From: Nanobdellati archaeon
GTDB lineage: Archaea > B1Sed10-29 > JAGVWA01
DNA: 58,213 nt
NCBI GenBank assembly: GCA_018304505.1
Contig: JAGVWA010000003.1
Coordinates: forward strand, 1-58,213
Direction: 5' to 3'
Made by a program: the position numbers and the translations under genes. The notes beneath the pieces were generated by a model. That model was not told the DNA's origin and searched no databases. It worked only from the letters and a program-made list of their open reading frames with translations. Every line of letters begins with the position of its first letter. The stretch's first letter is position 1. Positions 123-53,723 of this stretch are shown in pieces.

Positions 123-446
123 TTAGACGCCCCAAAAGTAGTCCTTCAAGTCTAGCTCAGAAAACATCAATCTATGGTTGCCCCAGAGCTCCCTGAGCTG
201 CTCTGTGGCCTGCTCGGCCTTCCACCTAGCGTTTTCATATCCCTCTGTGTCAGACTGAAATGAACCAAGGCCATACCTTTGCCTGACGCCAATGTCCAAA
301 AGCGCATCACTACCCAATGAAACTTCTTCAACAAGCCTTCCTTCAAGCGACCTCGCGAGTTCACGGCCCTTGCCAAAATCGCGCTCTGCACGGGCTGTGT
401 TGATTTCACCCATCTTCCGCTCAAAAACTTCTTGATCAAGCCACAT
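123..446 (-). CDS. Small orphan protein, MW-start group (MWLDQEVF..., 107 aa)
   Basis: ATG-TGG at 446, 5 nt after the stop of the upstream ORF; the track start at 455 is a GTG three codons earlier. Confidence 0.65.
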   Translation of the reverse strand: MWLDQEVFERKMGEINTARAERDFGKGRELARSLEGRLVEEVSLGSDALLDIGVRQRYGLGSFQSDTEGYENARWKAEQATEQLRELWGNHRLMFSELDLKDYFWGV

Positions 447-451
447 TTTTT

Positions 452-781
452 TCACTCGCCTGAAATCGCTTCTAAGAAAGCTCGGTCATTAACAGACACC
501 GGGTCGTCATTGCCAAGTGCCGCGATTCTTTTTTCAAGCTTTCCCATTAACTCATCTTTAAGTCCTTCTGCATCTCGGTTTTTTTCGCCGTCGGTAACGT
601 GCGTCCACTTCCCGTCCGCGTCATACGTCAGCAGCGACCCACCGTCAAGGGCGAAAATTTTGATGGCGCTTCTAAAGTCCCGCTTGATTTCAAGTGTGGC
701 TGTGTTTACGCACGCCAGGGACACGTCTTTCAGTTCCCTCAATTTCGGCGATCCTGACTCTACTGTTTCTCTGTCCCACAT
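452..781 (-). CDS. Small orphan protein, MW-start group (MWDRETVE..., 109 aa)
   Basis: ATG-TGG start; charged soluble composition; tandem with 123..446. Confidence 0.7.
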   Translation of the reverse strand: MWDRETVESGSPKLRELKDVSLACVNTATLEIKRDFRSAIKIFALDGGSLLTYDADGKWTHVTDGEKNRDAEGLKDELMGKLEKRIAALGNDDPVSVNDRAFLEAISGE

Positions 782-868
782 ACTAACTTCACATTATGGT
801 TTTTCAATTCAGGGAAATAAAAACATTTGCATATATCTTTAAATACATCTCGTTGCATAAATGAACAT

Positions 869-1129
869 ATGTGGAACATAACGACCGCATATCGGGGAGA
901 TAACGACTTCGACACCATTATACAACGACTAGGCGGCTTAACGCGGCTGGAAGAAACAGTGATTCCAGCTATCTGTGACCCTATTCCAGAACGCTTCGCA
1001 CTAGTAAACGGCCAGAGGCGAGAGGTCGCAGACCTGGCAATCAACCAGCGCAGGGGCCAAATCCAAGAAATCGTTCTCTATACTGGCGAGGATTTCGAAA
1101 CCGGTCTGTTGAATACGGGGCAAGCATAA
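869..1129 (+). CDS. Small orphan protein, MW-start group (MWNITTAY..., 86 aa)
   Basis: First in-frame ATG is ATG-TGG at 869, about 25-30 nt after a TTTAAATA box at 838-845. Confidence 0.6.
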   Translation: MWNITTAYRGDNDFDTIIQRLGGLTRLEETVIPAICDPIPERFALVNGQRREVADLAINQRRGQIQEIVLYTGEDFETGLLNTGQA

Positions 1130-1174
1130 GCGCTACAAACAAAGATACTTATTCTCCAAGATCCTTGATAGTGC

Positions 1175-1363
1175 ATGGAAGTGGAATTCGACCCAAACTT
1201 AAAGTGCTACATGGACACCTTTGGGGGGAAAATCAATCACCTGAACCCTGAATTCATTGCAGAGCTAAAAAAACTCGACGCACAGGCTGAAGCAGGCATA
1301 AAAAGCGGCAAGCTCAAGCCCATGGCGCGCGCGGAACGCAGAAAGGCCTTCGGGTTGGAGTGA
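1175..1363 (+). CDS. Small protein resembling an antitoxin C-terminal region (orphan antitoxin-like)
   Basis: LNPEFIAELKKL resembles VRPEYLKKLAEI of the RHH antitoxin at 25629..25877. Confidence 0.5.
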   Translation: MEVEFDPNLKCYMDTFGGKINHLNPEFIAELKKLDAQAEAGIKSGKLKPMARAERRKAFGLE

Positions 1364-1381
1364 CTCGAAAAAGGGCCGCGC

Positions 1382-1416
1382 GTAGTGTAAGACGCTGCAG
1401 TGTGTAGTGTAAGACG
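1382..1416 (+). repeat. Direct repeat GTAGTGTAAGACG x2 (1382-1394, 1404-1416)
   Basis: Two exact 13-nt copies 9 nt apart, just upstream of the cdc6 TATA-like box; same motif at 25613 and 26290. Confidence 0.9.
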
Positions 1417-1460
1417 GCCCAAAAGCTTTATATTCTCGGAAAGCTTATGCTTCCATGATT

Positions 1461-9212: not shown

Positions 9213-9224
9213 TGAGGAACGAGT

Positions 9225-11364: not shown

Positions 11365-11736
11365 TTATTCTAGCCCTTTTAAAAATGTGCTTAGGGCATC
11401 GCGGCTTTCTGCTTCGTGCCGCGCGACAGACGCGGCAAAGTCCATGCTCAAACACGAAACCACAGGCGTGTCCCTGAGCGCGCTTATCACTGCCCGATTT
11501 GCATCTAAACCGGTGTGCCTCAACATCCTGCAATTGGGGAATAACTCAAAGGCCACCATACCAGGGACATGACACCTTCCTTCAACTGCCCCTCTCGTGG
11601 CGACAACTAACCTCTTAGAATCGACACTCGCGTCCGCGTGCAGTACGGTGAGCTCCTTGCTCGAAACACCCATGCGTATTTCATTAGCAATCTCCATGCG
11701 CGCATTGCTCGACTCTGCTTCTATCGTTTTCCACAC
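11365..11736 (-). CDS. Small orphan protein, probable MW-start group (GTG-TGG; MWKTIEAE..., 123 aa)
   Basis: GTG-TGG at 11736 preceded by AAGGGGG; the track start at 11766 lies inside a tandem repeat. Confidence 0.55.
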   Translation of the reverse strand: MWKTIEAESSNARMEIANEIRMGVSSKELTVLHADASVDSKRLVVATRGAVEGRCHVPGMVAFELFPNCRMLRHTGLDANRAVISALRDTPVVSCLSMDFAASVARHEAESRDALSTFLKGLE

Positions 11737-11751
11737 ATTCCATTCCCCCTT

Positions 11752-11802
11752 ATTGATTTCAGTCATTGATTTCAGTCATTAATTTCAATCATTGATTTCA
11801 GT
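11752..11802. repeat. 13-nt tandem repeat ATTGATTTCAGTC, about 4 copies
   Basis: Units at 11752, 11765, 11778 (2 mismatches) and 11791; last unit overlaps the KaiC-like stop codon. Confidence 0.9.
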
Positions 11803-31902: not shown

Positions 31903-32094
31903 TTAGGCCCTGCGTAAAATATCCAGGGTTTCCTCGATGCTCGGCACCGGCGAATCATTTACCCTGTTAGGACTATCTAATGATTCAAGAAACATTAGGT
32001 CCGAAGATAGCTTTTCTGCTTCGGTTACACTATTCGTTTTGTCAGCCGCGCCTGCGCCTTCCGTCCTGCAATATGTCCCGTTCGTATTCGTCAT
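31903..32094 (-). CDS. Possible small hypothetical protein
   Basis: 63-aa ORF overlapping the end of 32042..32341. Confidence 0.3.
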   Translation of the reverse strand: MTNTNGTYCRTEGAGAADKTNSVTEAEKLSSDLMFLESLDSPNRVNDSPVPSIEETLDILRRA

Positions 32095-32341
32095 CTATAT
32101 CACTCAGGGATTCCGCAAGTTTATGGTTAATTCTGTAGTTATCGCCGCGTGACCTGATCCTGTCCGGGTCTTCGCCCAGCTCCCTGAGTGCGTCCATAGC
32201 ATCCCTTTCCCTGCGCAATGCTACCTCCTCTTCTGGCGAACCAGCTTCCGAATTTACGAACTTGTCGTATGCCCATACCAATCGCCTTGAGGCATTATCC
32301 ACATCGTCTCTATGTTTAGCGCTTCCTTGCCTTGACCACAT
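32042..32341 (-). CDS. Small orphan protein, MW-start group (MWSRQGSA..., 99 aa)
   Basis: ATG-TGG start preceded by GGGGATGA. Confidence 0.65.
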   Translation of the reverse strand: MWSRQGSAKHRDDVDNASRRLVWAYDKFVNSEAGSPEEEVALRRERDAMDALRELGEDPDRIRSRGDNYRINHKLAESLSDIDDEYERDILQDGRRRRG

Positions 32342-34969: not shown

Positions 34970-35236
34970 TTATCGCCTGTTGATTTCGCTCCAGACGTCT
35001 GCGAGGTGCTGCGTGATTTCTTTTCCTGTTTTAAATTCGCCGTTGCGTATTCGATCCCTCTCGCGGGCTGCATCTGCGGGGAGGAGGTACTTTAATGTGC
35101 GCGTCTCGTGTTTTGATAGTAAAACGGCACGGGGAATGTCCATTACAGGTATGACCTCCTGCCCTGCAAGGTGCTGATAACTGCGTGGGTCTGATGGATC
35201 CTTGTTACTTAAACATTGTATGTACGTCGCCCACAT
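34970..35236 (-). CDS. Orphan protein, MWATY paralog 3 (88 aa)
   Basis: Starts MWATYIQ; GAGGA upstream. Confidence 0.65.
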   Translation of the reverse strand: MWATYIQCLSNKDPSDPRSYQHLAGQEVIPVMDIPRAVLLSKHETRTLKYLLPADAARERDRIRNGEFKTGKEITQHLADVWSEINRR

Positions 35237-35241
35237 GGTCC

Positions 35242-35601
35242 TCAGTTGCTCCTTGTTCTGTCATTAAGCTGCATCGCATACGAGTCTGGAATTTTTTCCC
35301 CTGACTCCCACAGCACTGTCGCCAGATCCTTTAACATTTTAGTCACTGTCTCCGCGCCCTTTTCGCTTGGCGCCTGTGATTTCACTGCCAAACGAACGTT
35401 GTCTGCCATTTCATCAGGCAATGAGTCTATCAAATCGACTTCCGGTTTCCAGAGCTTGAATGCACCATGGCCATTGCCTAATCGATACACTGCTTGGCCT
35501 TTCTTCATGTTATATCCATTCATGATGGGCGTTGGGCTGCCGTAATGTGCATCAGCACGCCCATTTTCCAGTTTCTCTTGTGGAATATACGTTGCCCACA
35601 T
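35242..35601 (-). CDS. Orphan protein, MWATY paralog 2 (119 aa)
   Basis: Starts MWATYIPQEKL; TAATG coupling with paralog 1. Confidence 0.75.
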   Translation of the reverse strand: MWATYIPQEKLENGRADAHYGSPTPIMNGYNMKKGQAVYRLGNGHGAFKLWKPEVDLIDSLPDEMADNVRLAVKSQAPSEKGAETVTKMLKDLATVLWESGEKIPDSYAMQLNDRTRSN

Positions 35602-35966
35602 TATTTCATGCCCCCATTTTCAATAGGTTCATGTCTAACAAATTCATTCTGGTACTGTGTCGGGAGCTGATCAAAGTGGCCGTGTGCTATTGATTTAATT
35701 GCCATGTTGCGGAGGTCCTTTGTTAGTGCCGTGGCGCCCTCGTCGCTGGCATCGAATCTTCCTGAGCGTATCCGATTGATAAGGCCCCTTTCTGCCCTGT
35801 CATTAACTAAGTCTGATTCAATGAAATCGACTTCATGTTTCCATAGGCGCATTGCGCCCTGCGAGCCCCGTATTGAAATCATCATCTGCCCTGTTGCTTT
35901 TCGATAGCCGCCAGGGGTATTTTTTCCAACGTCGAGCTTTTCCTGCGGTACGTATGTCGCCCACAT
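35601..35966 (-). CDS. Orphan protein, MWATY paralog 1 (121 aa)
   Basis: First in-frame ATG at 35966 (MWATYVPQEKL); GGTG upstream; TTTAAATA about 33 nt upstream. Confidence 0.75.
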   Translation of the reverse strand: MWATYVPQEKLDVGKNTPGGYRKATGQMMISIRGSQGAMRLWKHEVDFIESDLVNDRAERGLINRIRSGRFDASDEGATALTKDLRNMAIKSIAHGHFDQLPTQYQNEFVRHEPIENGGMK

Positions 35967-36112
35967 AGTCACACCAACAAGATTTTGCACTATTCTGATA
36001 TTTAAAGGCCTCTGATAGTTGCCTGTCGAAAAAAATAAGGGGTTGTGGGGACTTAGGCCCCCACCTTGTTGTTTTTGGACGTGATTAATAATGTGGTTTA
36101 ATTTGTTTTGGT

Positions 36113-36907: not shown

Positions 36908-36922
36908 ATTCCATAACCTCCT

Positions 36923-38113: not shown

Positions 38114-38203
38114 CTATATTCACCCAATGGTTGCGTTTCCTATTATGCATATTTTGTAGTATATAAAGGTTATTGTAATTACTTTATAAAGCCTGCGCGT
38201 TTT

Positions 38204-40357: not shown

Positions 40358-40421
40358 TGCACAATTTCTGTGCTTTGGTGTACTTAAAGCTATTTAAACC
40401 AGAAGTAACCCAGTTAAGTTT

Positions 40422-41531: not shown

Positions 41532-41537
41532 GACACA

Positions 41538-41579
41538 TACACATCGGGCACTACACATCGAGCACTACACATCTGGCAC
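41538..41579. repeat. 14-nt tandem repeat TACACATCGGGCAC x3 (degenerate)
   Basis: Units at 41538, 41552 and 41566, just after the DHH stop. Confidence 0.85.
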
Positions 41580-41619
41580 ACGCATAACTATTTATCACAG
41601 TAAAGCCTAACTTACTCAC

Positions 41620-42174
41620 ATGGAAATCCACGAACTCAAAAACTTCTACAAACTCATGTCACCAAAACTCACGGTCCTAGTTACAACCATGGACCGATCT
41701 GGCAAGGTCGACGTTTCGCCATTCAGCTTCGTTACACCACTGAGTTTCGATCCGCCGCTACTTGGCATAAGCGTGGGGCCAAACAAGCATAGTTACTGGA
41801 GCATCACGCAGAAAAAGGAATTTGTTGTCCATGTCCCGACAGAAGAGCTGGTCGAAAAAATCGTCATCGCTGGCCAGAACTGGGACCCGGAAACCTCAAA
41901 GCTGGAACGCGCTGGGCTTGAAACAATCCCCGGAACGAAGGTCGGGCCTCCGATTTTGAAAGATTGCCCTGTCTCGATTGAGTGCTATCTCGAGGACACA
42001 AAGAAAGTCGGGGATCATGTTTTAATAATCGGAAGGGTTGTTGCTATCAACGTCAAGGATGAGGGAATGCTGGACGACGAGGGCCGCCTCAAGGTTGACC
42101 TAGTTAGGCCGCCGCTGCACGTTTCAGAAAACGTCTTTGCGTTCCCGTACGTGACAAAGAACATTGGCGAATAG
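41620..42174 (+). CDS. Flavin reductase-like (flavoredoxin) protein
   Basis: VLVTT, SPFSF, SFDPP, CPVSIEC, GDHVLIIGRV. Confidence 0.9.
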   Translation: MEIHELKNFYKLMSPKLTVLVTTMDRSGKVDVSPFSFVTPLSFDPPLLGISVGPNKHSYWSITQKKEFVVHVPTEELVEKIVIAGQNWDPETSKLERAGLETIPGTKVGPPILKDCPVSIECYLEDTKKVGDHVLIIGRVVAINVKDEGMLDDEGRLKVDLVRPPLHVSENVFAFPYVTKNIGE

Positions 42175-42185
42175 GAAGAATAATA

Positions 42186-42464
42186 ATGAGCGCTGCAAAT
42201 TACATCATCAGTTTCCTGGCCAACATGGTCTTCCTAAGCCTGGTTTTGGTTTGGCTTGAAGGAAGGTTTAGAAAAAAATACGGCTTCAGGATTGAGGACC
42301 ACCCTGCTATTGCAGCCACTTACGTGTTGCTGCTGCCGTTTTTAACTGAACTGTTCTCATGGGCCTTCAACAAAGAAGCCTTCTTCTTCAGCATGGTGCA
42401 AGCTGAACTGTTTTCGCTGAGCACTGAAGAAATATTAAATCTGGTCTCACTGATGCTGATCTGA
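42186..42464 (+). CDS. Small membrane protein
   Basis: Two to three hydrophobic segments. Confidence 0.55.
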   Translation: MSAANYIISFLANMVFLSLVLVWLEGRFRKKYGFRIEDHPAIAATYVLLLPFLTELFSWAFNKEAFFFSMVQAELFSLSTEEILNLVSLMLI

Positions 42465-43097
42465 CTTTGCACCATCGCCGTTGAGCAAAATACTGAGGGC
42501 CCGCTGCCTGATTTCGAAAAACTTCTTCTCGCTCTTGAGCTTACTGATCCTGTTTTCTATCACGTTGGCCCTGAAGTTCGCCCTGCTGTCGGCCTCTGCC
42601 TTCATCGGTTCCCTGCGCTTGCCTAGGTCGCTCGTCCTGGCCTCAATCAGCCGCTCCCTGTACTCTGCATCATGAAGAAACAACTCGATCATTCGCCTAT
42701 ACTTCTTGTCCTTGACCCTCTCAATTGGCAAATCAACAATCTCAAAGGCGTCCTTGTAGGCCTTGTCAACCATCATCTTGTACTGATGCTCCCACAGCAG
42801 CGGGTCTGTGAACGACTTGGCTTTTTCCAGAATCGGGTTAGCGACGTTGCGCCTGTGCGTGTTTTCCCAGTACTTGATCTGATCGCCGAGGTATGCCGTC
42901 CTCTTGGTTGCCTCGCCCAGCTGGGCTGAAAGGCTTTTCTCTGTCGGATACACAAGGTGCTTTGCAGACTTCCCGCCATCGAATTTAACAAGTCCGCCAG
43001 TGGCTTCGTAAACCCCAATCGCGTCCTTGAACGTCAAGTCAGCCCCGGTTGGGGGAAGTTTCTCGAGCTCCTTTGAATAGTCCTTCATCATTCCCAT
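42447..43097 (-). CDS. Hypothetical protein
   Basis: 216-aa ORF; codon style matches the core genes. Confidence 0.7.
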   Translation of the reverse strand: MGMMKDYSKELEKLPPTGADLTFKDAIGVYEATGGLVKFDGGKSAKHLVYPTEKSLSAQLGEATKRTAYLGDQIKYWENTHRRNVANPILEKAKSFTDPLLWEHQYKMMVDKAYKDAFEIVDLPIERVKDKKYRRMIELFLHDAEYRERLIEARTSDLGKRREPMKAEADSRANFRANVIENRISKLKSEKKFFEIRQRALSILLNGDGAKSDQHQ

Positions 43098-43178
43098 AAA
43101 CTAGGTAAAACAACGGGAATTAAAAAGCGTTTGTACGCAAGCATTAAAAAGCAAAACAGCCAAATGAGAAATGATCAC

Positions 43179-43517
43179 ATGATACCAGGTGGCATGAACC
43201 CAGCGCAGATCAGCAGGATGATGAAGCAGCTCGGCATAAAACAGGAAGAGGTCGACGCAACAGAGGTCATCATCAAGACTCCGCAGGGGAATATCGTAGT
43301 CCGGCAGCCCTCTGTCATGGTCATTGAAGCGCAGGGCAAGAAGACGTTTCAGGTCATGGGCAACGTTACGGAAGAATCAGCAGAAGCTGGGCCACAATTT
43401 ACTGACGACGACGTGAAGCTCGTTATGGAGAAAACCGGAAAGTCAGAAACCGAGGCACGCAACGCCCTGGAATCAACCAACGGCGACCTGACCGAAGCCA
43501 TCATGAAGCTGACTTGA
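43179..43517 (+). CDS. nac: Nascent polypeptide-associated complex protein
   Basis: GGMNPAQISRMMKQLGI, FQVMG, DDVKLVME, GDLTEAIMKL. Confidence 0.93.
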   Translation: MIPGGMNPAQISRMMKQLGIKQEEVDATEVIIKTPQGNIVVRQPSVMVIEAQGKKTFQVMGNVTEESAEAGPQFTDDDVKLVMEKTGKSETEARNALESTNGDLTEAIMKLT

Positions 43518-43564
43518 GTTCGTTGACCCTTAGCCCGGGCCCAACAGGATGAAAATGCTCATTC

Positions 43565-44998
43565 TCATTGAGAGCCGATAACCAGCGGAACAGCGCCCTC
43601 GGGTATTATTGATGCCTGCGATTCGCCCTGGAATTCGCCTTCAGCAGCCGCCGCGTCCGCGTTGTTGAGCTCATCAACTTCTGAAACAGGGATCTGCTCA
43701 AAGCCGACGATTTCCTTGTATTTCGTGAACACGCTCAACGCAACCTGTTTTTCTCCAGTGCCCTCAGAGAAATCGAATGAAAATGTGAAGATTCTGAAGC
43801 GCTCTGTCAGCGTGTAATTGACCCCCGCGACTTCCAAAACCCCCGGCAGCTTGTGGGCATACAGCTTTTCACGCGCCTCTACGTTGAAGCTGTTGTTCAA
43901 CAGGTACTCTTCGTACAACGCGAGGCCTGTGTCATTAACGGCGCCGATGGTGATTTCGAACGTACCGTTTTCAAAATAATACTCTGTACCAGAGAGTTGC
44001 TGCTCGATTTCTTCAACAGCCAGTGACTTGTTGCTGAAAGAAACAACCGTGTCATTTCCGGCTTGCGCAGCCCTGGCCTCTGTGAAATTCAGCGTGCTGG
44101 CGTTGGCGCCTGGAATTGTAACGCGGTTGTCAGGCTCCATGATCTCGATTTCAGGATGCCTCTGGATCAGCTGCAGCAGATCGCCCCTGATTTCCGAAAC
44201 TGGTTTTATTTCAATGCCGCCCGGATAGGTGCCGGAGAACTTGAACTGCGTGAAGTTCAGCACATCGATATCCAACTTCTTTGAAATCGGTTGTATGAAA
44301 ATCACATCCCCTAGCTGCAGGCCGAGGTACTGCTGCGGCTCTGTTAATGACTTGTCGATGCACTTGCCCTGTATGTTCTGCAGAATGCTGCGGTTGTCCG
44401 TAACAACAACAGGACAGACTATTGTAATGCGGGTGCCGTTTATCTTTGAGTACAACAGGGTTACTGGCAGCGTTTCTGCCTTTGTGACGATTGTCTCGTT
44501 GCCGATGGTGATGTTCTGCAGCAGCTTCACCGACCCATCACTGATTGGATAGCCAGAGGACTTGTTGAAGAACCCCAGGAGGTTGTAGGCAAGCCGAAAA
44601 CCAGACTCGGTCAAGGTCGTGTTTGGCTGCTGCGGCAGGTTTATGTTGTACGCGTAAGTGCCGCTGCGCTGGCCAAGGCTCAGCCTGACGCTGTGATTTG
44701 AATAACCAAGGCTGTCAATGATGCCCACAACCTGGGCCTGGTCGTTCGTGCTTGATTCACCAATAAAGTTTATAAATGGCTTTATGTCCAATATGTCTGC
44801 AGAAATCTCCGCATTGGTGAATGTCTTGATGTTCGACACGGGTTCTGTGGCCTCAAGTTCATTAGACCCAATATCAAGTTGCGAGGAGCCCGTGAAAAAA
44901 TAACTCATAGGCCCAAGGGTCAGCACTAGAACAAACAACGCGACAAGGACTCCGAACTTGTTGACGCCCTTGGATACGCCCTTGGATTTTTCTGCCAT
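43565..44998 (-). CDS. Membrane-anchored extracellular protein with many N-glycosylation sequons
   Basis: N-terminal TM after a basic start; numerous NxS/T. Confidence 0.7.
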   Translation of the reverse strand: MAEKSKGVSKGVNKFGVLVALFVLVLTLGPMSYFFTGSSQLDIGSNELEATEPVSNIKTFTNAEISADILDIKPFINFIGESSTNDQAQVVGIIDSLGYSNHSVRLSLGQRSGTYAYNINLPQQPNTTLTESGFRLAYNLLGFFNKSSGYPISDGSVKLLQNITIGNETIVTKAETLPVTLLYSKINGTRITIVCPVVVTDNRSILQNIQGKCIDKSLTEPQQYLGLQLGDVIFIQPISKKLDIDVLNFTQFKFSGTYPGGIEIKPVSEIRGDLLQLIQRHPEIEIMEPDNRVTIPGANASTLNFTEARAAQAGNDTVVSFSNKSLAVEEIEQQLSGTEYYFENGTFEITIGAVNDTGLALYEEYLLNNSFNVEAREKLYAHKLPGVLEVAGVNYTLTERFRIFTFSFDFSEGTGEKQVALSVFTKYKEIVGFEQIPVSEVDELNNADAAAAEGEFQGESQASIIPEGAVPLVIGSQ

Positions 44999-45024
44999 AC
45001 AACATATTCGAAACAAAGTCATAT

Positions 45025-45064
45025 TAAAAGCATACGGTGAAAACTAAAAGCATACAGTGAAATC
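45025..45064. repeat. 20-nt tandem duplication TAAAAGCATAC(G/A)GTGAAA(A/T)C
   Basis: Two adjacent copies in a divergent promoter spacer. Confidence 0.8.
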
Positions 45065-45078
45065 AACACGGTGATTCA

Positions 45079-45819
45079 ATGAGCAAGATAATACGCGTAA
45101 ACTACACAGGCACGATAAAGGGCACTGGCGAAATATTCGACACCACGTACGAGGAAGTTGCGAAGAAAAACAACATGCACTCCATGCACCGGACTTACAA
45201 GCCCATGGTAATGATCCTTGGCGAAAACCGCATCATACAAGGCCTGGAGCACGAGCTGGAAAAAATGAAGCAAGGTGACGAGAAGACCATCGAGCTAAGC
45301 AAAGCAGATGCCTATGGCGAGCGCAAACAGGACCTCATACAGCTGGTTCCGCTGCAGACCTTCAGGAAGAACAACGTCAACCCAGTACCGGGCATGGTGC
45401 TGAACCTCGACAATGGCCTGCGCGCAAAGGTGCAGTCGGTGTCGGGCGGCAGGGTTAGGCTGGACATGAACCACGAACTCGCGGGCAAGGACCTGGTGTT
45501 CGAAGTCAGAATAGAGGAAATCCCGGAAACTGACGAGCAAAAAGCGCGTGCGGTGTTTGACTTGACCTTTCCAGGCATAGACAAGTCAGATCTCAAAATC
45601 AGCATCGGCGGTGCCAAAAAACCAGCAAAGCAGCAGGTAATGACCCCAGAACAGGCTGTAAAGGCCGAGGACAAAACCAACAAGGGCACATTCATAACGA
45701 TCAGGATGCCAAAATCCGCCCTGGGCTTGAACGACTACCAGGCGCGCAAGCTGGTGCTGTCCCAAGATTTAAAGAAATACCTCGAAGCCGACTCAGTCAA
45801 GATTGAGGAAGAGTACTGA
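45079..45819 (+). CDS. Long-type archaeal FKBP peptidyl-prolyl isomerase (SlyD-like)
   Basis: YTG..GEIFDTT, IIQGLE, AYGER, DMNHELAGKDL. Confidence 0.93.
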   Translation: MSKIIRVNYTGTIKGTGEIFDTTYEEVAKKNNMHSMHRTYKPMVMILGENRIIQGLEHELEKMKQGDEKTIELSKADAYGERKQDLIQLVPLQTFRKNNVNPVPGMVLNLDNGLRAKVQSVSGGRVRLDMNHELAGKDLVFEVRIEEIPETDEQKARAVFDLTFPGIDKSDLKISIGGAKKPAKQQVMTPEQAVKAEDKTNKGTFITIRMPKSALGLNDYQARKLVLSQDLKKYLEADSVKIEEEY

Positions 45820-45846
45820 CACCGGCACATAGACTGACACCGGCAC
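45815..45846. repeat. ACTGACACCGGCAC x2 spanning the FKBP stop codon
   Basis: Copies at 45815-45828 and 45833-45846. Confidence 0.8.
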
Positions 45847-46033
45847 GCAAAACCCGCACAGGGGAAAACTTTAAATACAACAATTGGGCAAATAAGTACA
45901 GCGGCATACTAATTATGCGAACTTCTCAAAACCTGACTTAAGCAAATTAGAAAACTCAATTAGAACTCAATAAAAAACTGAGTTAAAAAAATTAAAAAAA
46001 CTAAGTTACGGAAGGCATAAGGGGATATCCAGC

Positions 46034-46681
46034 ATGACACAACCACAAGACATAAAGACAACAGACACTGGTACAACAACACTCGGCATAAAGTGCTCCG
46101 ACGGCGTCATCCTCGGCGCGGACAACAGAACCACAATGGGCAACTTCGTTGCTGGAAAGGACAAACAAAAAGTCCGCCCTATTAATGACTACATCGGCTT
46201 CACGTGGGCCGGCGCAGTAGGCGACGCGCAAATGCTTGAACGCACAATCAAGGCTAACGTTGCCCTGTACGAAACACAGAGAAACAAGCGCATCAAACTG
46301 AGGTCATTGACAACGTTTCTGGCCAACATCTTCCAGGAGCGCTCGTACTTCCCGTACTGGGTACAAACCATCATCGGCGGATACGACTCAGAACCGCGCC
46401 TAATAGACATCGACGCCATCGGCGGATACAAGGAATTCACGGACTTCACCGTGTCAGGATCAGGGTCCATGATGGCAATTGGCGTGCTCGAGGCAGAATA
46501 TACAAAAGAAAAAACCATGAAGGAAAATGAACTCCTCGCGTTGCGCGCAATTCACGCGGCCATAGAGCGCGACATATACTCTGGAAACGGCGTCGACCTG
46601 CTCTTCATCGACAAACACAAATCAGAACTCAAACACTACACCCTTGATGAAGTAAAACAAATCATAGGCGCAAAGAAATAA
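46034..46681 (+). CDS. psmB: Proteasome beta subunit
   Basis: Propeptide-TG|TTTLG, ADNR, AGAVGDAQ, GSGS, RDIYSG. Confidence 0.96.
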   Translation: MTQPQDIKTTDTGTTTLGIKCSDGVILGADNRTTMGNFVAGKDKQKVRPINDYIGFTWAGAVGDAQMLERTIKANVALYETQRNKRIKLRSLTTFLANIFQERSYFPYWVQTIIGGYDSEPRLIDIDAIGGYKEFTDFTVSGSGSMMAIGVLEAEYTKEKTMKENELLALRAIHAAIERDIYSGNGVDLLFIDKHKSELKHYTLDEVKQIIGAKK

Positions 46682-46797
46682 ATCCAATTAAAAAACGGGA
46701 TCGCGGCACAACGATCTACAAGACAACATATAACAGCATAGCAACAGTGCTATAATAATTAGAATAATGATTAGAAAACACGGAGTGTGAACAGCCA

Positions 46798-48693
46798 ATG
46801 GCAGACTTTATCAAAGAACTAGCAAAGCAAGTGCATGAAATCCTGCCTAGCGAAGCAGAGATCACTAGTATTGAGGCAGAGGGACCAGAAATCGTAATTT
46901 ATACGAAGAACCTGAAACTTTTCCAGGATCAGGAGCGACTCATCAAAGGCCTTGCAGGACAACTCAAGAAGCGCTTCGTCGTCAGGAGCGACGCATCTCA
47001 ATTAATGACGCCAGAGGAAGCTGAAAAGAAAATCCGCGAAATACTGCCAGAAGAAGCAGGGCTAGAAACCATAATGTTTGACCCGGAATTCCACCAAGTG
47101 AACATCGAGGCACGCAAAATCGGCCTCGTCATCGGCCACCACGGGGACACGCTAAAGGAAATCGCGCGCCAGACCAACTGGGTTGCAAAGCCCCTGAGAA
47201 TGCCAACAATGCCAACCACAATGCTCAAGTCGATAAGACAGCTTCTAGTCAAAGAAGCAAAGACCAGGAAGGCACTGCTCAAGAAAGTCGGGAAACAGAT
47301 CTACAGGGAACAGACAAAACCGACCGACTGGATTCGATTCACGACACTCGGCGCCAGCAGGCAAGTCGGCAGGTCATGTTTCTTACTCGAAACCCCAGAG
47401 TCCAAGGTCTTCCTTGATTGCGGCCTCGGCACAGGCCCTGGGGACCAGAGGTTCCCATACCTATCCTCAGTAGACTTCTCGCTCGACGAACTCGACGCAG
47501 TAATACTAAGCCACGGCCACTTAGACCACAGCGGCATGATTCCATACCTCTTTGAATACGGCTATGATGGGCCACTTTACTGCACAACCCCAACACGGGA
47601 TGTGATTGCGCTGCTGCAGAAGGACATGCTCAACGTCTTCGTCAAAAACAACGAGGTGCCGCCATACGACGAAAAGGCCATCAAGAAGCAGATCCTACAC
47701 TGCATCACCCGAGAATATGGCGAAGTCACAGACATCTCTCCGGACATGAGAATGACATTCCAAAACGCAGGACACATTCTTGGCAGCGCCTTAACGCATT
47801 TGCACATCGGCGATGGCGCACACAACCTAGTTTACACGGGCGACCTGAAGTTCGGTTTCTCAGAACTTTTCGACCCCGCAGAATCACGATTTCCAAGGGT
47901 TGAGACGCTGGTAATAGAATCCACTTACGGGGGCAACGTCCACACTACGGCTCCAAGGTTCATGGCAGAGAAACAGTTAATGGACTACATCATCAACACC
48001 GTCGAGAAGAACAACGGAATCGTCCTTATTCCGAGTTTCGCAGTTGAAAGGGCACAAGAGGCGATGCTCGTCATTGAAGCCTACGCGCGGCAGCACCCTG
48101 AGTGGGACATACCAGTATACTTGGACGGAATGATAAAGGAAGCCTGTGCCATTCATACAGCGTATCCTGAGTATCTGAAACGCAATGTCCAGCGCCGGAT
48201 CTTGCACAACGACTCGCCGTTCAGCTCCCATATTTTCCAGTCAGTGGATCCTGTAAAAAGAGAGGAAATCGTGAACCAGGGACGCTGCGTTATTATAGCA
48301 CCCGCGGGCATGATGAACGGCGGCCCCGTGCTCGACTACTTCAAACGCACATGCGAAGACCCAAAGAACCAACTGATTTTCATGTCTTTCCAAGCAGAAG
48401 GAACGCTTGGCCAAAAAATCAAGGGCGGCGCCAGAAAAGTAGTCTTAGAAGACAAAGCAGGGGCAAGGGAATACGAAATCAAAATGAAGGTCAACGAAAT
48501 CCCGGGCTTCAGTGGGCACGCCGATTTCAACCAGCTCCTGGGCTTCTACAAAAAACTCTCGCCAAAACCAGAACGCGTCTTGACGATTCACGGCGAGGAA
48601 AAATCCTGTGTCAACCTTGCAAGGACGCTGGGATACAAATTCCGTGTAGAGGCCAGCGCGCCGCGTAACCTCGACGCGATACGGCTGAAGTAG
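46798..48693 (+). CDS. fttA: Beta-CASP ribonuclease aCPSF1 / termination factor FttA
   Basis: Tandem KH N-terminus (EGPEIVIY), VGRS, HGHLDH, AGHILGS, ESTYG, FSGHAD, HGE; follows psmB. Confidence 0.95.
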   Translation: MADFIKELAKQVHEILPSEAEITSIEAEGPEIVIYTKNLKLFQDQERLIKGLAGQLKKRFVVRSDASQLMTPEEAEKKIREILPEEAGLETIMFDPEFHQVNIEARKIGLVIGHHGDTLKEIARQTNWVAKPLRMPTMPTTMLKSIRQLLVKEAKTRKALLKKVGKQIYREQTKPTDWIRFTTLGASRQVGRSCFLLETPESKVFLDCGLGTGPGDQRFPYLSSVDFSLDELDAVILSHGHLDHSGMIPYLFEYGYDGPLYCTTPTRDVIALLQKDMLNVFVKNNEVPPYDEKAIKKQILHCITREYGEVTDISPDMRMTFQNAGHILGSALTHLHIGDGAHNLVYTGDLKFGFSELFDPAESRFPRVETLVIESTYGGNVHTTAPRFMAEKQLMDYIINTVEKNNGIVLIPSFAVERAQEAMLVIEAYARQHPEWDIPVYLDGMIKEACAIHTAYPEYLKRNVQRRILHNDSPFSSHIFQSVDPVKREEIVNQGRCVIIAPAGMMNGGPVLDYFKRTCEDPKNQLIFMSFQAEGTLGQKIKGGARKVVLEDKAGAREYEIKMKVNEIPGFSGHADFNQLLGFYKKLSPKPERVLTIHGEEKSCVNLARTLGYKFRVEASAPRNLDAIRLK

Positions 48694-48770
48694 CGCTTGG
48701 TGTAATTCTTGGTGCATCGTAGGCCCATTAAACAAATAGCCTTAAATATGTGGTCACCTATAATTTATGC

Positions 48771-49721
48771 ATGTTTATAGAAACGCGCAGGGTGGGCAAG
48801 AAACAGAAATTTTATCTCGTTCACTCCTTCCGGCGTGCGGGCAAAGTAGAAAAACTTCGCAGGTACTTGGGGGCAGACTTAACAAAAAAAGAGATTGAGG
48901 GGGCCAAAGAAATTGCGGAAAGGCAGCTTCTGCAACGGGCTGCAGTGTACAAAAAAATCCGGGATCCGCTAATGACGACCTTGTCGCAAGAGGAACTTGA
49001 ACAACTCAAATATCTTGAGAAAAAATCGCACTTCAAAATATTCCACTTGTCTGAAAAAGAATGGAAGGAATTTGCTGAAACCTTCACATACAACACCAAT
49101 GCAATCGAGGGTTCAGAACTGACAGAAAAAGAAGTAAAACAAATCGTCGAAAAAAATGAGTGGCCGGCATTCAAATCAAAAGAAGATATTTCTGAAGCAT
49201 ATGGGGTTATGGAAGCGATAGCCCACACTAGAAAAACAAAAACACACATCTCATTAGACTTACTCAAAGAGCTGCACAAGCTCGCCTTCAAGAACTCAAA
49301 AAGTTTTGCGGGGCAACTAAGAAAAAAAGGAATCGAGGTAGTCATTAGAGACGGGTTTGGAAACGTTGTCCATCAAGGGGCCCCTGCAGAAACCGTCCCG
49401 GGCCTGCTAAAAGAACTAGCGTCCTGGTACAACAAATACCGAAACAAATACCCCCCATTAGTATTAGCGTCTGTTGTTCACAATCAATTTGAAAATATCC
49501 ACCCATTCCAAGACGGCAACGGCAGAGTTGGCAGGTTGCTATTAAACAACATCCTGATAAAACACGGTTTGCCTCCTGTTAACATAGAGTTCACAAGAAG
49601 AAGAGAATACTACGCAGCATTACAAGCTTACGAGAACAACCACGACCTTAGACCAACGATAGAGCTTCTCCTCTCAGAATACAAAACCCTCAAAAAGAAA
49701 GGTGACCACAAAACTAGCTGA
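48771..49721 (+). CDS. Fic-domain protein (class II, internal inhibitory motif)
   Basis: HPFQDGNGRVGR catalytic motif; TNAIEGS inhibitory motif; N-terminal YLVHSFR...YLG domain. Confidence 0.92.
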   Translation: MFIETRRVGKKQKFYLVHSFRRAGKVEKLRRYLGADLTKKEIEGAKEIAERQLLQRAAVYKKIRDPLMTTLSQEELEQLKYLEKKSHFKIFHLSEKEWKEFAETFTYNTNAIEGSELTEKEVKQIVEKNEWPAFKSKEDISEAYGVMEAIAHTRKTKTHISLDLLKELHKLAFKNSKSFAGQLRKKGIEVVIRDGFGNVVHQGAPAETVPGLLKELASWYNKYRNKYPPLVLASVVHNQFENIHPFQDGNGRVGRLLLNNILIKHGLPPVNIEFTRRREYYAALQAYENNHDLRPTIELLLSEYKTLKKKGDHKTS

Positions 49722-49862
49722 GTACCAGGGGAACGTGGTCACCCAAATAGTTACTGCTCAACATTTGCACTGCGCATGCAAAAGCTTAAAAAACAAGCAG
49801 CGGGCCTACGAAGCAACGCCCCTGGGCAATTCTATTTATAGTATCTCGTCGTTTCGATAATC

Positions 49863-51116
49863 ATGCCGAACACCCATGGCCTTTCTGAGCTTGCGGACCA
49901 GATGCTCCATGAACCGAGGAAGCAAAAGGAACTGTTCCTAAAAGCCCCAGCTAACGAGCAAGGAGACCTGCTTCTGATGCTGCCTTCCAGGGTTCAGAAG
50001 GAGGTTTTGGACAAACTAGATGACGGCACAATCATAAGTATCTGCCACTATCTTGACCCCGACGACACAACAGACGTGATACAGAAACTCAACAAAGAAA
50101 AAAGAAAACCCATTACGGAAAGCCTAAACAAGGAAACCAAGGAAAAGGTGGACTTCCTGCTGCGCTTTAATCCGCGGACAGCAGCAGGCCTGATGAACCT
50201 CGACTTCATCATTGTAGATACGGAAAAAACCGTCGATGAAGTATCAGAGCTTATAAGGCGGCACGAAAAACGCACGGGGAAGGCTCCTGCAGTTCTAGTA
50301 ACCGAAAGTGGCATTCTGGCAGGCGAAGTGCCGGGCTATCAGCTAGTAATACACAAGCAGGGCGCGAAAATCGGGACAATCATGAAAAAAATCCCTAGCA
50401 TTGCGTATAACAGTAAACAGAATGAGGTCATCCACAAATTCAAAAGGCACAGACACGACAAGATCGCGGTGCTGGATAATGACAAAAGCATCATGGGAAT
50501 CATTTACTCCGATGACGTTCTCCAGCTGATGGAAGACCAGTCCACCAAGTCATTGTTCTCATTTGCTGGCGTCAGCAGGGAAGAAAGCGCACTAGACTCG
50601 ACAATGACCAAGGTCAAATACAGGTACAAGTGGCTCATTCTCAATCTTTTTACAGCGTTTATGGCAGCAGCCGTTGTAAGCCTTTTCGAAAAAACCATCT
50701 CATCATTTGTGCTCCTGGCTGTTTACATGCCCATTGTCGCAGGCATGGGCGGAAACGCGGGCACCCAGGCCCTTGCAGTCGCGGTGCGCGGCCTGACCCT
50801 GAAGGAAATCGATCTATCGACAGCCAAAAAAACAATAATAAACGAGGTGCTTGCCGGCCTTACTAATGGAGTAATTGTTGGCGTCATCATTACGTTTATT
50901 GCCGCGGCCCTGCACCAAAACCCCTTGTTCGGATTTATTGTCGGGGCATCAATGATAATAACGCTGATGGTCGCCGGTTTTTTCGGGGCACTGACCCCCC
51001 TGCTGATGAGCCGTCTTGGCAAGGACCCAGCATCGTCGTCAAGCATATTCATCACCACCGCGACGGACATGTTCGGCTTCTTCACATTCCTCGGTCTGGC
51101 AAGCGTTCTTCTCTGA
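49863..51116 (+). CDS. mgtE: Magnesium transporter MgtE
   Basis: AAGLM CBS pair, RYKWLILN, GMGGNAGTQ, DPA..FITTATD. Confidence 0.93.
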   Translation: MPNTHGLSELADQMLHEPRKQKELFLKAPANEQGDLLLMLPSRVQKEVLDKLDDGTIISICHYLDPDDTTDVIQKLNKEKRKPITESLNKETKEKVDFLLRFNPRTAAGLMNLDFIIVDTEKTVDEVSELIRRHEKRTGKAPAVLVTESGILAGEVPGYQLVIHKQGAKIGTIMKKIPSIAYNSKQNEVIHKFKRHRHDKIAVLDNDKSIMGIIYSDDVLQLMEDQSTKSLFSFAGVSREESALDSTMTKVKYRYKWLILNLFTAFMAAAVVSLFEKTISSFVLLAVYMPIVAGMGGNAGTQALAVAVRGLTLKEIDLSTAKKTIINEVLAGLTNGVIVGVIITFIAAALHQNPLFGFIVGASMIITLMVAGFFGALTPLLMSRLGKDPASSSSIFITTATDMFGFFTFLGLASVLL

Positions 51117-51224
51117 AGCAAAGGACCTAATTTTTTATAAATACGGTTATCTGCAAACCGCTAGGAAAAAAAGTCGATTAGTAATAAACTACGAAAAAAA
51201 AGCGAGATAAATGGGCCTTGCTGT

Positions 51225-51389
51225 TTACGCAACGTCGTGGGTAATTTTTCGGTGCTTCACTGCTTTTTCAATGTCTTTTAAATCCCCACAGTGCACTTTC
51301 CTATCCTCGAATTTATTGATTTTTTTCTTGAAGGATTTCGCGAATATCACATAATAGTCGCTTCTTTTAGCGTTTTTCCATATAGAATT
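51225..51389 (-). pseudogene. Possible remnant of an archaeal ATPase/DUF234 C-terminus
   Basis: Startless frame ...WKNAKRSDYYVIFAKSFKKKI...DLKDIEK; AT-rich; resemblance by recall only. Confidence 0.35.
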
Positions 51390-51497
51390 TCATATATACC
51401 TAATAGGTATAATCCCTAACAGGTATATAAATTTTTTGTGTTGCCGCGTGTTGTTCAACACCAAACGCTTTTAAACCACGTTTTCCCCAATCACATC

Positions 51498-52778
51498 ATG
51501 CAGTACAAACAAATCGCTGACGCTGAAACGCACGAAGGCAAGGCACTCAGGTTACGGGGCTGGATCCACAGAACCAGGCACAGCAACAAGCTCGGGTTTA
51601 TCGTGCTCAGGGACTCAAGCGGAATAATACAATGCGTCATCAATTCTGACCATCCAAAATTCCGGGAAGCAGTAAGCCTCGGAATCGAAAGCGCAATATC
51701 CCTTTCCGGAAAGGTGAAAAAAGATGAACGCGCACCCGGCGGATATGAACTCGCTGTTGAAGAATTCGAGACAATTCACCGCGCTGAAGTTTTCCCGATA
51801 ACAAAAGACCAGAGCGACGAGTTCTTGCTGGACATAAGGCACTTGACTGTGCGGAGCCAAAAAGTCACGAACGCGCTAAAGGTCCGTAGCACGGTTTTCG
51901 AAGCCATACACGAATACTTCAGGAAACTTGGGTACTTCGAGGTGCAGAGCCCGATCATCACGCCGACTGCCGGCGAATCAGGAAGTGACCAATTCAACGT
52001 CAAGTACTTTGATGAAGAAGCGTACCTGGCACAGACGTGGCAGCTGTACGCCGAAGCAGTCGTATTGGCCCTAGAAAAGATCTACTGCATCGCGCCGAGT
52101 TTCAGGGCCGAGAAGTCAAGAACAACAAGGCACTTGACAGAGTACTGGCACGCCGAAGTCGAAACGGCATGGCAGGATCTTGAGGGGCTCATTGCATTGG
52201 CAGAAGGCCTTATAGTTCACATCATCAAAACCGTTATACGTGAAAGAAAGCGCGAACTCGAATTCTTCGAGATCAACGTGAAGAAACTCCAAGAAATAAA
52301 GGCGCCGTTTAAGCGCATCACATACGACGAGGCCCTGATGATACTGAAAAAACGTGGCGTGGAAACCGCATGGGGCAAGGACCTCAGGACACTCGAGGAA
52401 AGGGAAATCCTCGACGAATTCGGAAACAAACCGGTCTTTGTTACGCATTTCCCAAAGCAAATCAAGGCATTCTACATGCCGCGAGACCCAGAAAAACCAG
52501 AGACTGCGCGCTGTTTCGACTTACTTGCCCCGGGTGTCGGCGAGATCATTGGAGCAAGCGAACGCGATCTCGACATTGATGAGATGAAGAAATCGCTAAC
52601 TGCTGCTGGCGAAAAGGTCGAGACGTACGACTGGTACTTCGACACCAGGCGCTATGGTTCAGTGCCGCACGCTGGTTTTGGCCTTGGCGTTGAGCGGGTT
52701 GTGCAGTGGCTAACTGGGCTGGAACACATAAGGGACACAATTGCCTTCCCAAGGACCTTGAACAGGTTCAGGCCATAG
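51498..52778 (+). CDS. asnS: Asparaginyl-tRNA synthetase
   Basis: LRGW..FIVLRDSSGIIQ OB fold, FRAEKSRTTRHLTEYW, YGSVPHAGFGLGVER. Confidence 0.92.
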   Translation: MQYKQIADAETHEGKALRLRGWIHRTRHSNKLGFIVLRDSSGIIQCVINSDHPKFREAVSLGIESAISLSGKVKKDERAPGGYELAVEEFETIHRAEVFPITKDQSDEFLLDIRHLTVRSQKVTNALKVRSTVFEAIHEYFRKLGYFEVQSPIITPTAGESGSDQFNVKYFDEEAYLAQTWQLYAEAVVLALEKIYCIAPSFRAEKSRTTRHLTEYWHAEVETAWQDLEGLIALAEGLIVHIIKTVIRERKRELEFFEINVKKLQEIKAPFKRITYDEALMILKKRGVETAWGKDLRTLEEREILDEFGNKPVFVTHFPKQIKAFYMPRDPEKPETARCFDLLAPGVGEIIGASERDLDIDEMKKSLTAAGEKVETYDWYFDTRRYGSVPHAGFGLGVERVVQWLTGLEHIRDTIAFPRTLNRFRP

Positions 52779-52821
52779 TTCTAGAGAAAATGATAAATTC
52801 ACCCTGCACGCCAATACACGT

Positions 52822-53127
52822 GTGTGGGACACAACAGAAGACGACTTGGGTTTTACGCCGAATGATGAGGAGATTGCTGCTACAAGACAGGCCGCGACCG
52901 AGTTCATTGACGGAAAACAGCGCGAACTCATTGAAGCAATGCAGCTGGCACGCGGGCTCTCATTTGGTGGCCGATTTCATGAAGAAAGGAATTTCGCCAC
53001 TTATGATGCAGAGAAAGATTTTTCTGGTCGCATAGCATTCACTGTTGACGATCATCTGCACGTCTCTGCTGCCGATGAGAATGAAGGCCCACAAACAACC
53101 CGGGAAGGGGCGCCAAAGGTAGAGTAA
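52822..53127 (+). CDS. Small orphan protein, MW-start group (GTG-TGG; MWDTTEDD..., 101 aa)
   Basis: Shares ATEFIDGKQR..LA..FGG with 53433..53723. Confidence 0.65.
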   Translation: MWDTTEDDLGFTPNDEEIAATRQAATEFIDGKQRELIEAMQLARGLSFGGRFHEERNFATYDAEKDFSGRIAFTVDDHLHVSAADENEGPQTTREGAPKVE

Positions 53128-53179
53128 CACACCAAAAGGTATAAATATCACTTTTTTGCAGAATTTTATGTGTTTTTAC

Positions 53180-53443
53180 ATGTGGGAAAACAACTTGAGT
53201 ACAGAGGACGTTGCATCCTGGGCTGAACGGCAGCGCGAACTTAAACGGGCCAAAGCGGCACTGGGAGAGCCAGGGATGACTGGCTGGACCGTTGGTGAAT
53301 TCAACACGTATTTTGCAGGCGTTGATACAGCTGGTGTGCTACACTTTCATGTTGGACACGAGGCGCTGAAGAAGATAAGCCAAGTCAAAAGCGCTCTTGG
53401 CGAAGATGATACAATCGCCATCGGTGATAACAATGTGGAATAA
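53180..53443 (+). CDS. Small orphan protein, MW-start group (MWENNLST..., 87 aa)
   Basis: ATG-TGG at 53180; TATAAATA at 53140-53147. Confidence 0.6.
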   Translation: MWENNLSTEDVASWAERQRELKRAKAALGEPGMTGWTVGEFNTYFAGVDTAGVLHFHVGHEALKKISQVKSALGEDDTIAIGDNNVE

Positions 53444-53723
53444 GGCAGAACAGCAATTGGCAGAGGCAGAAGCCACCAAGTTCGTTGACAACATGCAAAG
53501 AAGCGTAGCCTTGGCAGTTAAATTTGGCGGGACGCTGAGGCCTGGTGAATCTGTCCGAGGGAAAATTGGTGCTGTGCATGCATTCATTGAGCGCGGTTTT
53601 GATGGCAAGGTTGATGTATTAACAGCGCCCACGCCAAACGAATTGGAAAGCCAACTTAAAGATCGCGAAGATCAAACGTGGCTAAAAAGAACGTACCGCG
53701 ATACCTACGGCAGAGAGTACTGA
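53433..53723 (+). CDS. Small orphan protein, MW-start group (MWNKAEQQ..., 96 aa)
   Basis: ATG-TGG at 53433 with GGTGA 6 nt upstream; ATKFVDNMQR..LAVKFGG. Confidence 0.65.
   Translation: MWNKAEQQLAEAEATKFVDNMQRSVALAVKFGGTLRPGESVRGKIGAVHAFIERGFDGKVDVLTAPTPNELESQLKDREDQTWLKRTYRDTYGREY

Follow-up and report, generated by a model that had tools for sequence, protein, structure and literature searches.

We describe a class of about 90–105 genes, about one in every ten, whose products begin with the dipeptide Met-Trp (MW) in the genome of a Nanobdellati archaeon (GenBank assembly GCA_018304505.1). The class came to light in a 58,213-nucleotide stretch (contig JAGVWA010000003.1, positions 1 to 58,213), here called the window, which is contig C14 of the 917-kb, 21-contig assembly G000, 92.8% complete. 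Because the second residue has been kept in ~100 genes whose bodies have diverged beyond recognition, with or without a common ancestor, selection acts on Trp2 (or its codon) in its own right, independently of body sequence and predicted fold. The Met-Trp start looks like an unreported two-residue tag: a full-text literature search, with most subscription journals outside its coverage, found no description of such a class.

A sequence-only reading of the window had listed eleven small orphan proteins starting MW, and had proposed Trp2, or the underlying RTG-TGG (R, purine), as a mark specific to the lineage that persists while the rest of the protein diverges. Genome-wide enrichment, confinement to orphans and background levels in relatives all bear this proposal out. 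As possible roles of the mark, that reading had named an export signal, a degron or modification signal, and an element of translation initiation. In the window, an in-frame RTG-TGG is present at each of the eleven sites, with ATG as the start codon in nine cases and GTG in two (11736 and 52822), and each opens an open reading frame (ORF) of 86–123 aa. With Trp making up 0.86% of residues, ~0.6 MW starts are expected among the ~71 window ORFs (p = 3e-11). Six of the eleven starts had been internal ones chosen in the earlier reading. Public gene calls nonetheless use the MW start for ten of the eleven genes, and the nine ATG-start proteins are all found, identical in sequence and start, in the public protein collection; the exception is the 11736 gene, which public calls begin at ATG 11766. 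As had been described, the eleven proteins have no recognisable domain (no Pfam family for any of them), and BLAST similarity among them is confined to local paralogues.

Enrichment of Met-Trp starts across the genome

A crude gene set for G000 was built by greedy selection with a hexamer score trained on ORFs of at least 300 aa, giving 1080 ORFs that cover 90.7% of the DNA. The first in-frame ATG of each ORF was then picked blind to the codon that follows. TGG comes after this ATG in 83 of 1062 ORFs (7.8%), but after internal ATGs in only 46 of 5651 cases (0.81%), an enrichment with a binomial p of 2e-52 and a Fisher odds ratio of 10.3. Tabulated genome-wide against background, W is enriched 9.1-fold at residue 2 and K and A 1.6-fold, and F, Y and L are depleted (0.42-, 0.54- and 0.57-fold). 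A test that uses no gene calls and is anchored on a Shine-Dalgarno (SD) sequence agrees: the commonest codon after GGTGA-N3-9-ATG is TGG (21 of 206, p = 2e-16). The enrichment is found at residue 2 only, since the counts of W at residues 2 to 12 of small orphan proteins are 91, 1, 0, 0, 1, 3, 1, 2, 2, 3 and 4.

For further analysis we used a wider working set of 104 ORFs, defined by an ATG-TGG or GTG-TGG at most 60 codons from the upstream stop with 40–200 aa remaining. This set excludes three longer first-ATG cases (370, 323 and 287 aa) and misses the 35966 gene of the window.

Small, acidic orphan proteins of one lineage

MW proteins have a median length of 92 aa (interquartile range 80–108 aa; 5–95% range 60–144 aa), and 44 of the 115 ORFs of 80–100 aa start MW. 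They had been expected to be soluble and to lack a Sec signal; in agreement with this, a hydrophobic, transmembrane-like window of 19 residues occurs in 3 of 104, versus 63 of 299 other small ORFs. Per 100 aa they carry a net charge of −4.7; soluble orphans without the MW start are at +0.9 and small conserved proteins at +3.0. Beyond residue 2, Trp is not enriched in MW proteins (0.96%, versus 0.84%). Among 89 ATG-start members scanned singly, two had Pfam matches, to the RpoP zinc ribbon and in an ORF internal to SepF. NCBIfam returned RpoP, other zinc-ribbon models on the RpoP-matching protein, and one match at 0.0088; PHROGs returned three matches, none better than E = 0.003, and PADLOC one at 0.008.

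MW starts are a property of orphan genes. We scored an ORF as conserved if it had a tblastn match at E ≤ 1e-3 in either of two whole genomes of the same order, G007 (569 kb) and G011 (695 kb), or in ~1.2 Mb of other loci. For ORFs of 60–150 aa, MW starts are found in 91 of 242 orphans and in 3 of 151 conserved ORFs (p = 3.6e-19), and the three conserved cases are doubtful members: the SepF-internal site, a PRC-barrel-like ORF and one with a GTG start. Among small orphans that are soluble, 89 of 199 start MW.

The same dipeptide is at background in related genomes. With one simple caller applied to all sets (longest ORFs, first ATG), MW starts number 71 of 1104 in G000, as against 3 of 657 in G007, 2 of 779 in G011, 1 of 182 in a 160-kb set (G020), 0 of 63 in a 48-kb set (G029), 3 of 585 in 80 metagenome loci and 3 of 538 in 80 genome loci. 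Likewise, GGTGA-N3-9-ATGTGG occurs 21 times in G000 (once in the reversed control) and 0–10 times in each of the 30 other genomes of the phylum. G000 is the sole species genome of its GTDB family, in a phylum of 31 species genomes, and its nearest named relatives are metagenome-assembled genomes labelled Woesearchaeota or Nanoarchaeota.

We found a single outside relative of any MW protein of the window. This is P0021, 117 aa, on one 542-bp contig; it is 52% identical to the product of the 35966 gene, is not encoded in G000 and begins MWANYIEQEKL. A profile of the trio to which that gene belongs, three tandem genes whose products begin MWATY, was searched against 1.84 billion representatives and recovered P0021 as its one true relative, together with three long repetitive proteins that we regard as spurious. 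Word-index searches with two queries (A4 and A3) matched G000's own proteins and P0021 only, and no relative was found among IMG/VR viral contigs. A scan for close relatives, anchored on AsnRS/AspRS, found none above ~60% identity in metagenome and genome contigs. Contigs from four sequencing runs that cover positions 33800–53799 represent the same strain, with MW genes essentially identical and too little variation for a ratio of nonsynonymous to synonymous polymorphism (pN/pS). An in-frame 9-nt insertion at 53069, in the 52822 gene, is present in contigs of three runs on other samples and adds three residues; the resulting strain variant (P0025, 104 aa) also begins MWDTTEDD. This insertion is the sole MW-gene difference among those listed over 33800–53799, with 36 further differences unlisted.

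Conservation ends at the second residue

By BLAST at 1e-3 the 104 proteins form 95 clusters, nine pairs and 86 singletons. Weak similarity shows no excess either: with the first three residues removed and size-matched soluble non-MW ORFs as controls, match rates at E ≤ 10 are 0.0226 for MW-MW comparisons, 0.0209 for MW-nonMW and 0.0247 for nonMW-nonMW. Comparison of the profiles of two window trios with hhalign aligned W2 only, at a probability of 0.1%. The divergence of the bodies around a constant dipeptide, described from eleven genes, extends to the class.

The sequence logo past M1-W2 is nearly flat, with 0.3–0.45 bit at residues 3–6 against sampling noise of ~0.13 bit. Residue 3 is a polar one, 44 of the 104 proteins have T, I or V at residue 4, and 31 have E or D at residue 6; residues 3–12 are polar and acidic overall. 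The MW proteins have no C-terminal motif and ordinary stop-codon usage. At the DNA level we found no conservation around the start beyond ATGTGG and a weak SD sequence at −13 to −8, and a shared DNA cassette or recombination core was accordingly rejected. Paralogues within arrays are 19–43% identical and can be aligned from residue 1. Extended N-terminal conservation among them was considered and rejected, since residues 3–14 are no better kept (19% identity) than the rest (27%). In contrast to its surroundings, W2 is kept in every detectable paralogue of credible MW members.

Structure prediction points the same way in part. The AlphaFold2 (AF2) model of the MWATY family, built from four sequences, is confident (pLDDT 87.4, pTM 0.77) and has a strand at residues 4–6, two further strands and five helices; in a fold search of the PDB its best match had E = 1.5, and 0 of the 261 listed matches reached E ≤ 0.001. 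The AF2 model of the 53433 protein is of low confidence (pLDDT 63) and begins with a long N-terminal helix. In the ESM Atlas, the model of the 446 protein (pLDDT 0.70) has helical-hairpin or coiled-coil neighbours and that of the 781 protein, of low confidence, has beta-rich ones; these Atlas neighbours were uninformative. The MW proteins thus look like three or four different predicted architectures, with the MWATY model as the one confident example.

Tandem arrays and contexts of initiation

MW genes are clustered. There are 38 adjacent MW-MW pairs, versus 11.0 +/- 3.0 expected (maximum 24 in 2000 permutations among small genes); 35 of the 38 are co-directional, many with gaps of 0–8 nt. The singletons and three-gene clusters seen in the window recur genome-wide, where we count 42 singletons, 11 pairs, 12 trios and one quartet. 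Since arrays often hold weak paralogues of 19–43% identity, we take them to grow by tandem duplication and to diverge fast. Trios are as common as pairs, which is above the expectation for a simple duplication series, and a three-gene unit may have meaning. A search for a conserved partner gene gave no paralogue family that is repeatedly adjacent, with the exception of one duplicated segment on contigs C15 and C17.

The upstream context of the starts is mixed. Of the 104, 37 have an SD sequence of at least 5 nt alone, 13 have a TATA-like box alone, a further five have both, and 49 have neither. MW starts are thus found after an SD sequence, after a TATA-like box and in cistrons coupled in translation, a mild argument against an element tied to one mode of initiation. 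Among 33 tRNAs detected with aragorn, an incomplete list, are one intron-containing tRNA-Trp(CCA) and one tRNA-Met. The tRNA-Trp(CCA) gene (contig C3, 106320–106457) adjoins two minus-strand MW genes whose products both begin MWNQQ (starts 106158 and 104264). No CCACAT complement to the motif was found in the part of the 16S region that was read, nor was a 3' end with the usual CCUCC. On C15, three MW genes in a row (starts 17692, 17989 and 18303) lie directly upstream of the 16S rRNA gene (18912–20352), and a second, short 16S-like fragment (model positions 1349–1438) is found at 21162–21250, ~0.8 kb downstream of the 16S gene. One contig, C21 (60.7 kb), has 63 ORFs, among which 16 are small orphans, but zero MW genes, for which the chance is ~5e-4 at the genome-wide orphan rate. 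C21 encodes very large proteins of a 20-member paralogue family; possibly it is an island with a history of its own.

What is the function of the Met-Trp start?

The mark is independent of initiation context and of predicted fold, and the tagged proteins are small, acidic and soluble and evolve like an effector repertoire. For these reasons we favor a reading at the level of the protein. Methionine aminopeptidase spares a Met that a bulky residue follows, and the mature proteins should accordingly begin Met-Trp. Local tandem duplication multiplies the MW genes, and the copies drift apart until no similarity is left, with Met1-Trp2 invariant. We propose that the free N-terminal Met-Trp would be read on the protein by a lineage-specific factor, much as N-recognins read one or two residues, and would mark the class for a common fate. 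The likeliest such fate would be sorting, or hand-over of an effector-like repertoire to a partner or to the cell surface. Hence MW may be a sorting or export signal of effector-like proteins from a small, probably host-dependent archaeon, a proposal that we consider plausible and short of probable. The genome is 0.9 Mb and has no detected match to tryptophan synthase alpha (Trp_syntA) in its 92.8%, and the sole outside relative, P0021, also starts MW. A more specific form of the proposal is that a free Met-Trp code has a family-specific receptor and hands ~100 acidic, effector-like proteins to the host or to the contact zone; this we regard as speculative and, on balance, unlikely.

Several observations weigh against a sorting signal. 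Two residues are very short for a signal, and we identified no receptor, translocon or protease in G000 that reads Met-Trp. A search for ClpS (PF02617) gave no match in G000, at 92.8% completeness, and its control matched 5 of 14 reference genomes; the number of GNAT (PF00583) matches, 8, is ordinary for the order (1–11 in 17 genomes). As TGG is the sole codon for Trp, synonymous codons cannot separate selection on protein from selection on RNA, and a strict W that excludes F and Y suits a nucleotide motif and a binding pocket equally well. The N-terminus of the MWATY model is ordered (pLDDT 93, strand at 4–6), which fits a structural element better than a free tag. The gene calls are crude, the MW site being other than the first ATG in 21 of the 104 set members. 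The set also holds a few false members, namely the SepF-internal site, the PRC-barrel-like GTG ORF and one GTG start at which the W, as a paralogue shows, is internal. Finally, the MW genes are known here from sequence alone.

An alternative explanation is that Met-Trp is read on the protein to set stability or modification, as an N-degron or an N-terminal acetylation signature, and serves as a common switch of half-life or activity. One source (PMC4692089) lists Met-Trp as a NatC substrate class, describes N-recognins as reading one or two N-terminal residues, and puts Trp second in 1.3% of human proteins. MW proteins share the trait of NatC substrates, Met followed by a bulky hydrophobic residue, and their acetylation is putative. 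The strict position of W at residue 2 and the independence of the mark from predicted fold are consistent with this explanation. However, known N-degron readers and NatC also take Leu, Ile, Phe and Tyr, and F, Y and L are depleted at residue 2 here; ClpS has no match, and the GNAT count falls among those of relatives in which the class is missing. Moreover, a turnover signal gives no reason for a set made up of small, acidic orphans. We therefore hold this explanation to be unlikely.

A second alternative is descent from one or a few ancestral genes by tandem duplication and very fast divergence, with W2 as a structural residue that, for example, packs an N-terminal strand on the core. The narrow size range, the detectable paralogues inside tandem arrays, the ordered MWATY N-terminus with its strand at residues 4–6, and the excess of T, I or V at residue 4 (against ~20% expected) all fit such a history. 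But weak similarity within the class is no higher than in controls, the profiles of the two trios share nothing beyond W2, and the predicted architectures, of which one is confident, differ: N-terminal strand, long helix, helical hairpin, beta-rich. Furthermore, a W2 that outlasts everything else would still need selection specific to W2. Descent of this kind we likewise hold to be unlikely.

A third possibility is that the codon, not the residue, is selected: UGG in the ribosomal A site would gate ~100 genes, for example through the supply of charged tRNA-Trp in an organism unable to make tryptophan, or would tune the first elongation step. Strict identity and position are what one expects of a nucleotide motif, the genome has a single tRNA-Trp gene and no tryptophan synthase alpha that we could find, and the motif is present in every initiation context. 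Set against this, there is no flanking nucleotide conservation beyond ATGTGG and the weak SD sequence and no CCACAT complement in the 16S sequence that was read, Trp is not enriched elsewhere in MW proteins, and relatives that are presumably equally dependent do without the motif. A gate of this kind does not explain the restriction to acidic orphan proteins, and the literature search, within the coverage given above, returned no precedent. We rate selection on the codon as quite improbable. Chance or a start-calling artefact, which could draw on the six internally chosen starts and on the disagreement at 11736, has next to no probability and is refuted at the level of sequence statistics: the first-ATG and SD-anchored tests are both blind to the second codon and both give p < 1e-15, background rates come from the same caller in control DNA sets, and public calls agree for ten of eleven genes.

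Relation to known systems

Effector repertoires are defined by short motifs in several systems: RxLR in oomycetes, PEXEL in Plasmodium, the Y/F/WxC candidates of powdery mildews and the SVM signal of phytoplasmas. The MW class resembles them in being a large, lineage-specific and fast-evolving set of small proteins, often clustered, whose bodies are unrelated and whose N-terminal sequence is conserved over a short stretch; those organisms live on another cell. In contrast, their motifs are several residues long and lie behind or within a Sec signal peptide, whereas MW is the first two residues and is followed by no hydrophobic leader. The MW class also differs in belonging to an archaeon and in being known here from its genes.

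With N-degron and N-recognin pathways and with NatC, the MW class shares the principle that the one or two leading residues carry information by their identity. ClpS, UBR, the Met-hydrophobic rule and NatC accept several bulky hydrophobic residues, unlike the MW class, which has Trp only. We know of no N-terminal-residue code described in archaea. The class is also reminiscent of WXG100 substrates of type VII secretion, which are soluble, acidic, ~100 aa long, encoded in gene clusters and marked by a conserved Trp, and some MW proteins are predicted helical hairpins. However, the Trp of WXG100 proteins sits in a central WxG turn and that of MW proteins at residue 2, several MW proteins have predicted beta structure, and the WXG100 family was not among the Pfam matches (E ≤ 0.01) of the 89 MW proteins scanned. 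Leader peptides of trp operon attenuation similarly have the rare UGG near the start, as a sensor of tryptophan supply; they are tiny, with tandem Trp codons ahead of genes for tryptophan biosynthesis, unlike the single UGG that opens MW ORFs of 60–150 aa.

Whatever reads it, roughly a tenth of the genes in this genome bear a mark that relatives lack. If read on the protein, Met-Trp would give archaea their first reported N-terminal-residue code, and would provide a one-line sequence rule for the lineage-specific, possibly host-directed proteins of an uncultured archaeon, proteins that have so far been inaccessible in DPANN biology. A receptor that hands the proteins over would make Met-Trp a leaderless export or sorting signal based on the identity of the N-terminal residue. 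Among DPANN-type archaea, the MW class would then be the first candidate set of effectors that can be recognised from sequence. If instead the mark is read on the mRNA, the second codon would define a regulon of a new kind. The tag is a single mutable residue, and is thus directly testable under either reading.

Met-Trp genes of the window and their surroundings

The eleven candidate genes of the window are listed below.

Candidate Met-Trp genes of the window, named by the position of the start codon
Gene	Coordinates	Strand	Length (aa)	N-terminus	Public call	Position and context
446	123..446	-	107	MWLDQEVFE...	P0001 (exact)	second of co-directional pair; begins 5 nt past the stop of 781
781	452..781	-	109	MWDRETVES...	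P0003	first of pair
869	869..1129	+	86	MWNITTAYR...	P0006	divergent from the 446/781 pair
11736	11365..11736	-	123	GTG-TGG start	P0026 (133 aa, starts at ATG 11766)	orphan gene, 3' of KaiC-like ATPase
32341	32042..32341	-	99	MWSRQGSAK...	P0008	singleton; GGGGATGA box upstream
35236	34970..35236	-	88	MWATY	exact	third gene of MWATY trio
35601	35242..35601	-	119	MWATY	exact	second gene of MWATY trio
35966	35601..35966	-	121	MWATY		first gene of MWATY trio
52822	52822..53127	+	101	MWDTTEDD... (GTG start)	P0028	first of trio, 3' of class II Asp/Asn-type tRNA synthetase gene
53180	53180..53443	+	87	MWENNLSTE...	P0016	
53433	53433..53723	+	96	MWNKAEQQL...	P0018	

A TATA-like TTTATTT lies ~35–40 nt upstream of the 781 gene. 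The mRNA of the 869 gene may be leaderless or nearly so, since TTTAAATA is found at −30 to −23; the same sequence is located 33–40 nt upstream of the 35966 gene. Within the MWATY trio, the products of 35236 and 35601 are 31% identical with MWATY invariant, and the ATG of 35601 shares 1 nt with the stop codon of the first gene (TAATG). In the third cluster, TATAAATA lies 33–40 nt upstream of the 53180 gene, which has an alternative in-frame ATG four codons upstream, and GGTGA precedes the 53433 gene by 5 nt, that gene overlapping the end of the preceding one by 11 nt. For three genes an upstream start is preferred by some gene callers: 53180 (MCFYMW, P0017), 53433 (P0019/P0020) and 35966 (P0015).

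Membership of the 11736 gene in the class is uncertain because its public start lies 10 codons upstream, which makes the W residue 12. A GTG-TGG start is possible, with a AAGGGGGA box 8 nt before the GTG. Directly upstream of this gene, at 11740–11790 on the minus strand, is a tandem direct repeat of two copies of ATGACTGAAATCA that includes the public-start ATG. The neighboring KaiC-like ATPase gene (11798–12487, minus strand) is one of nine paralogues genome-wide and the sole copy that adjoins an MW-type gene.

The surroundings are those of an ordinary archaeal chromosome, with genes for SecD/SecF, archaeosine tRNA-guanine transglycosylase, a Hel308-type helicase and FttA/aCPSF1, and further genes for two Orc1/Cdc6 proteins, the large subunit of PolD, the KaiC-like ATPase, SepF and ribosomal protein S3Ae. 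It had been stated that no housekeeping or membrane gene of the window starts MW. This largely stands, the MW at 9724 being internal to S3Ae and that at 33463 lying inside SepF; a possible exception is a DsbA/thioredoxin-like gene (36923–38113, minus strand), in which TGG follows the first ATG (37894) and a transmembrane-like segment comes next (MWYIIIAAVISLAGV...). The 73 codons before this ATG are Gln/Pro-rich. If ATG 37894 is the true start, the gene would encode an MW protein of 323 aa anchored in the membrane, an outlier within the class.

The two Orc1/Cdc6 paralogues (1455–2483 and 33694–34899, both on the plus strand) each lie directly beside an MW cluster (123–1129 and 34970–35966, respectively). 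The PolD large subunit (DP2; 27950–31888, plus strand) has a match to an intein-splicing domain at residues 935–1043, with a score of 27.5 bits, below the Pfam cut-off of 35.8.

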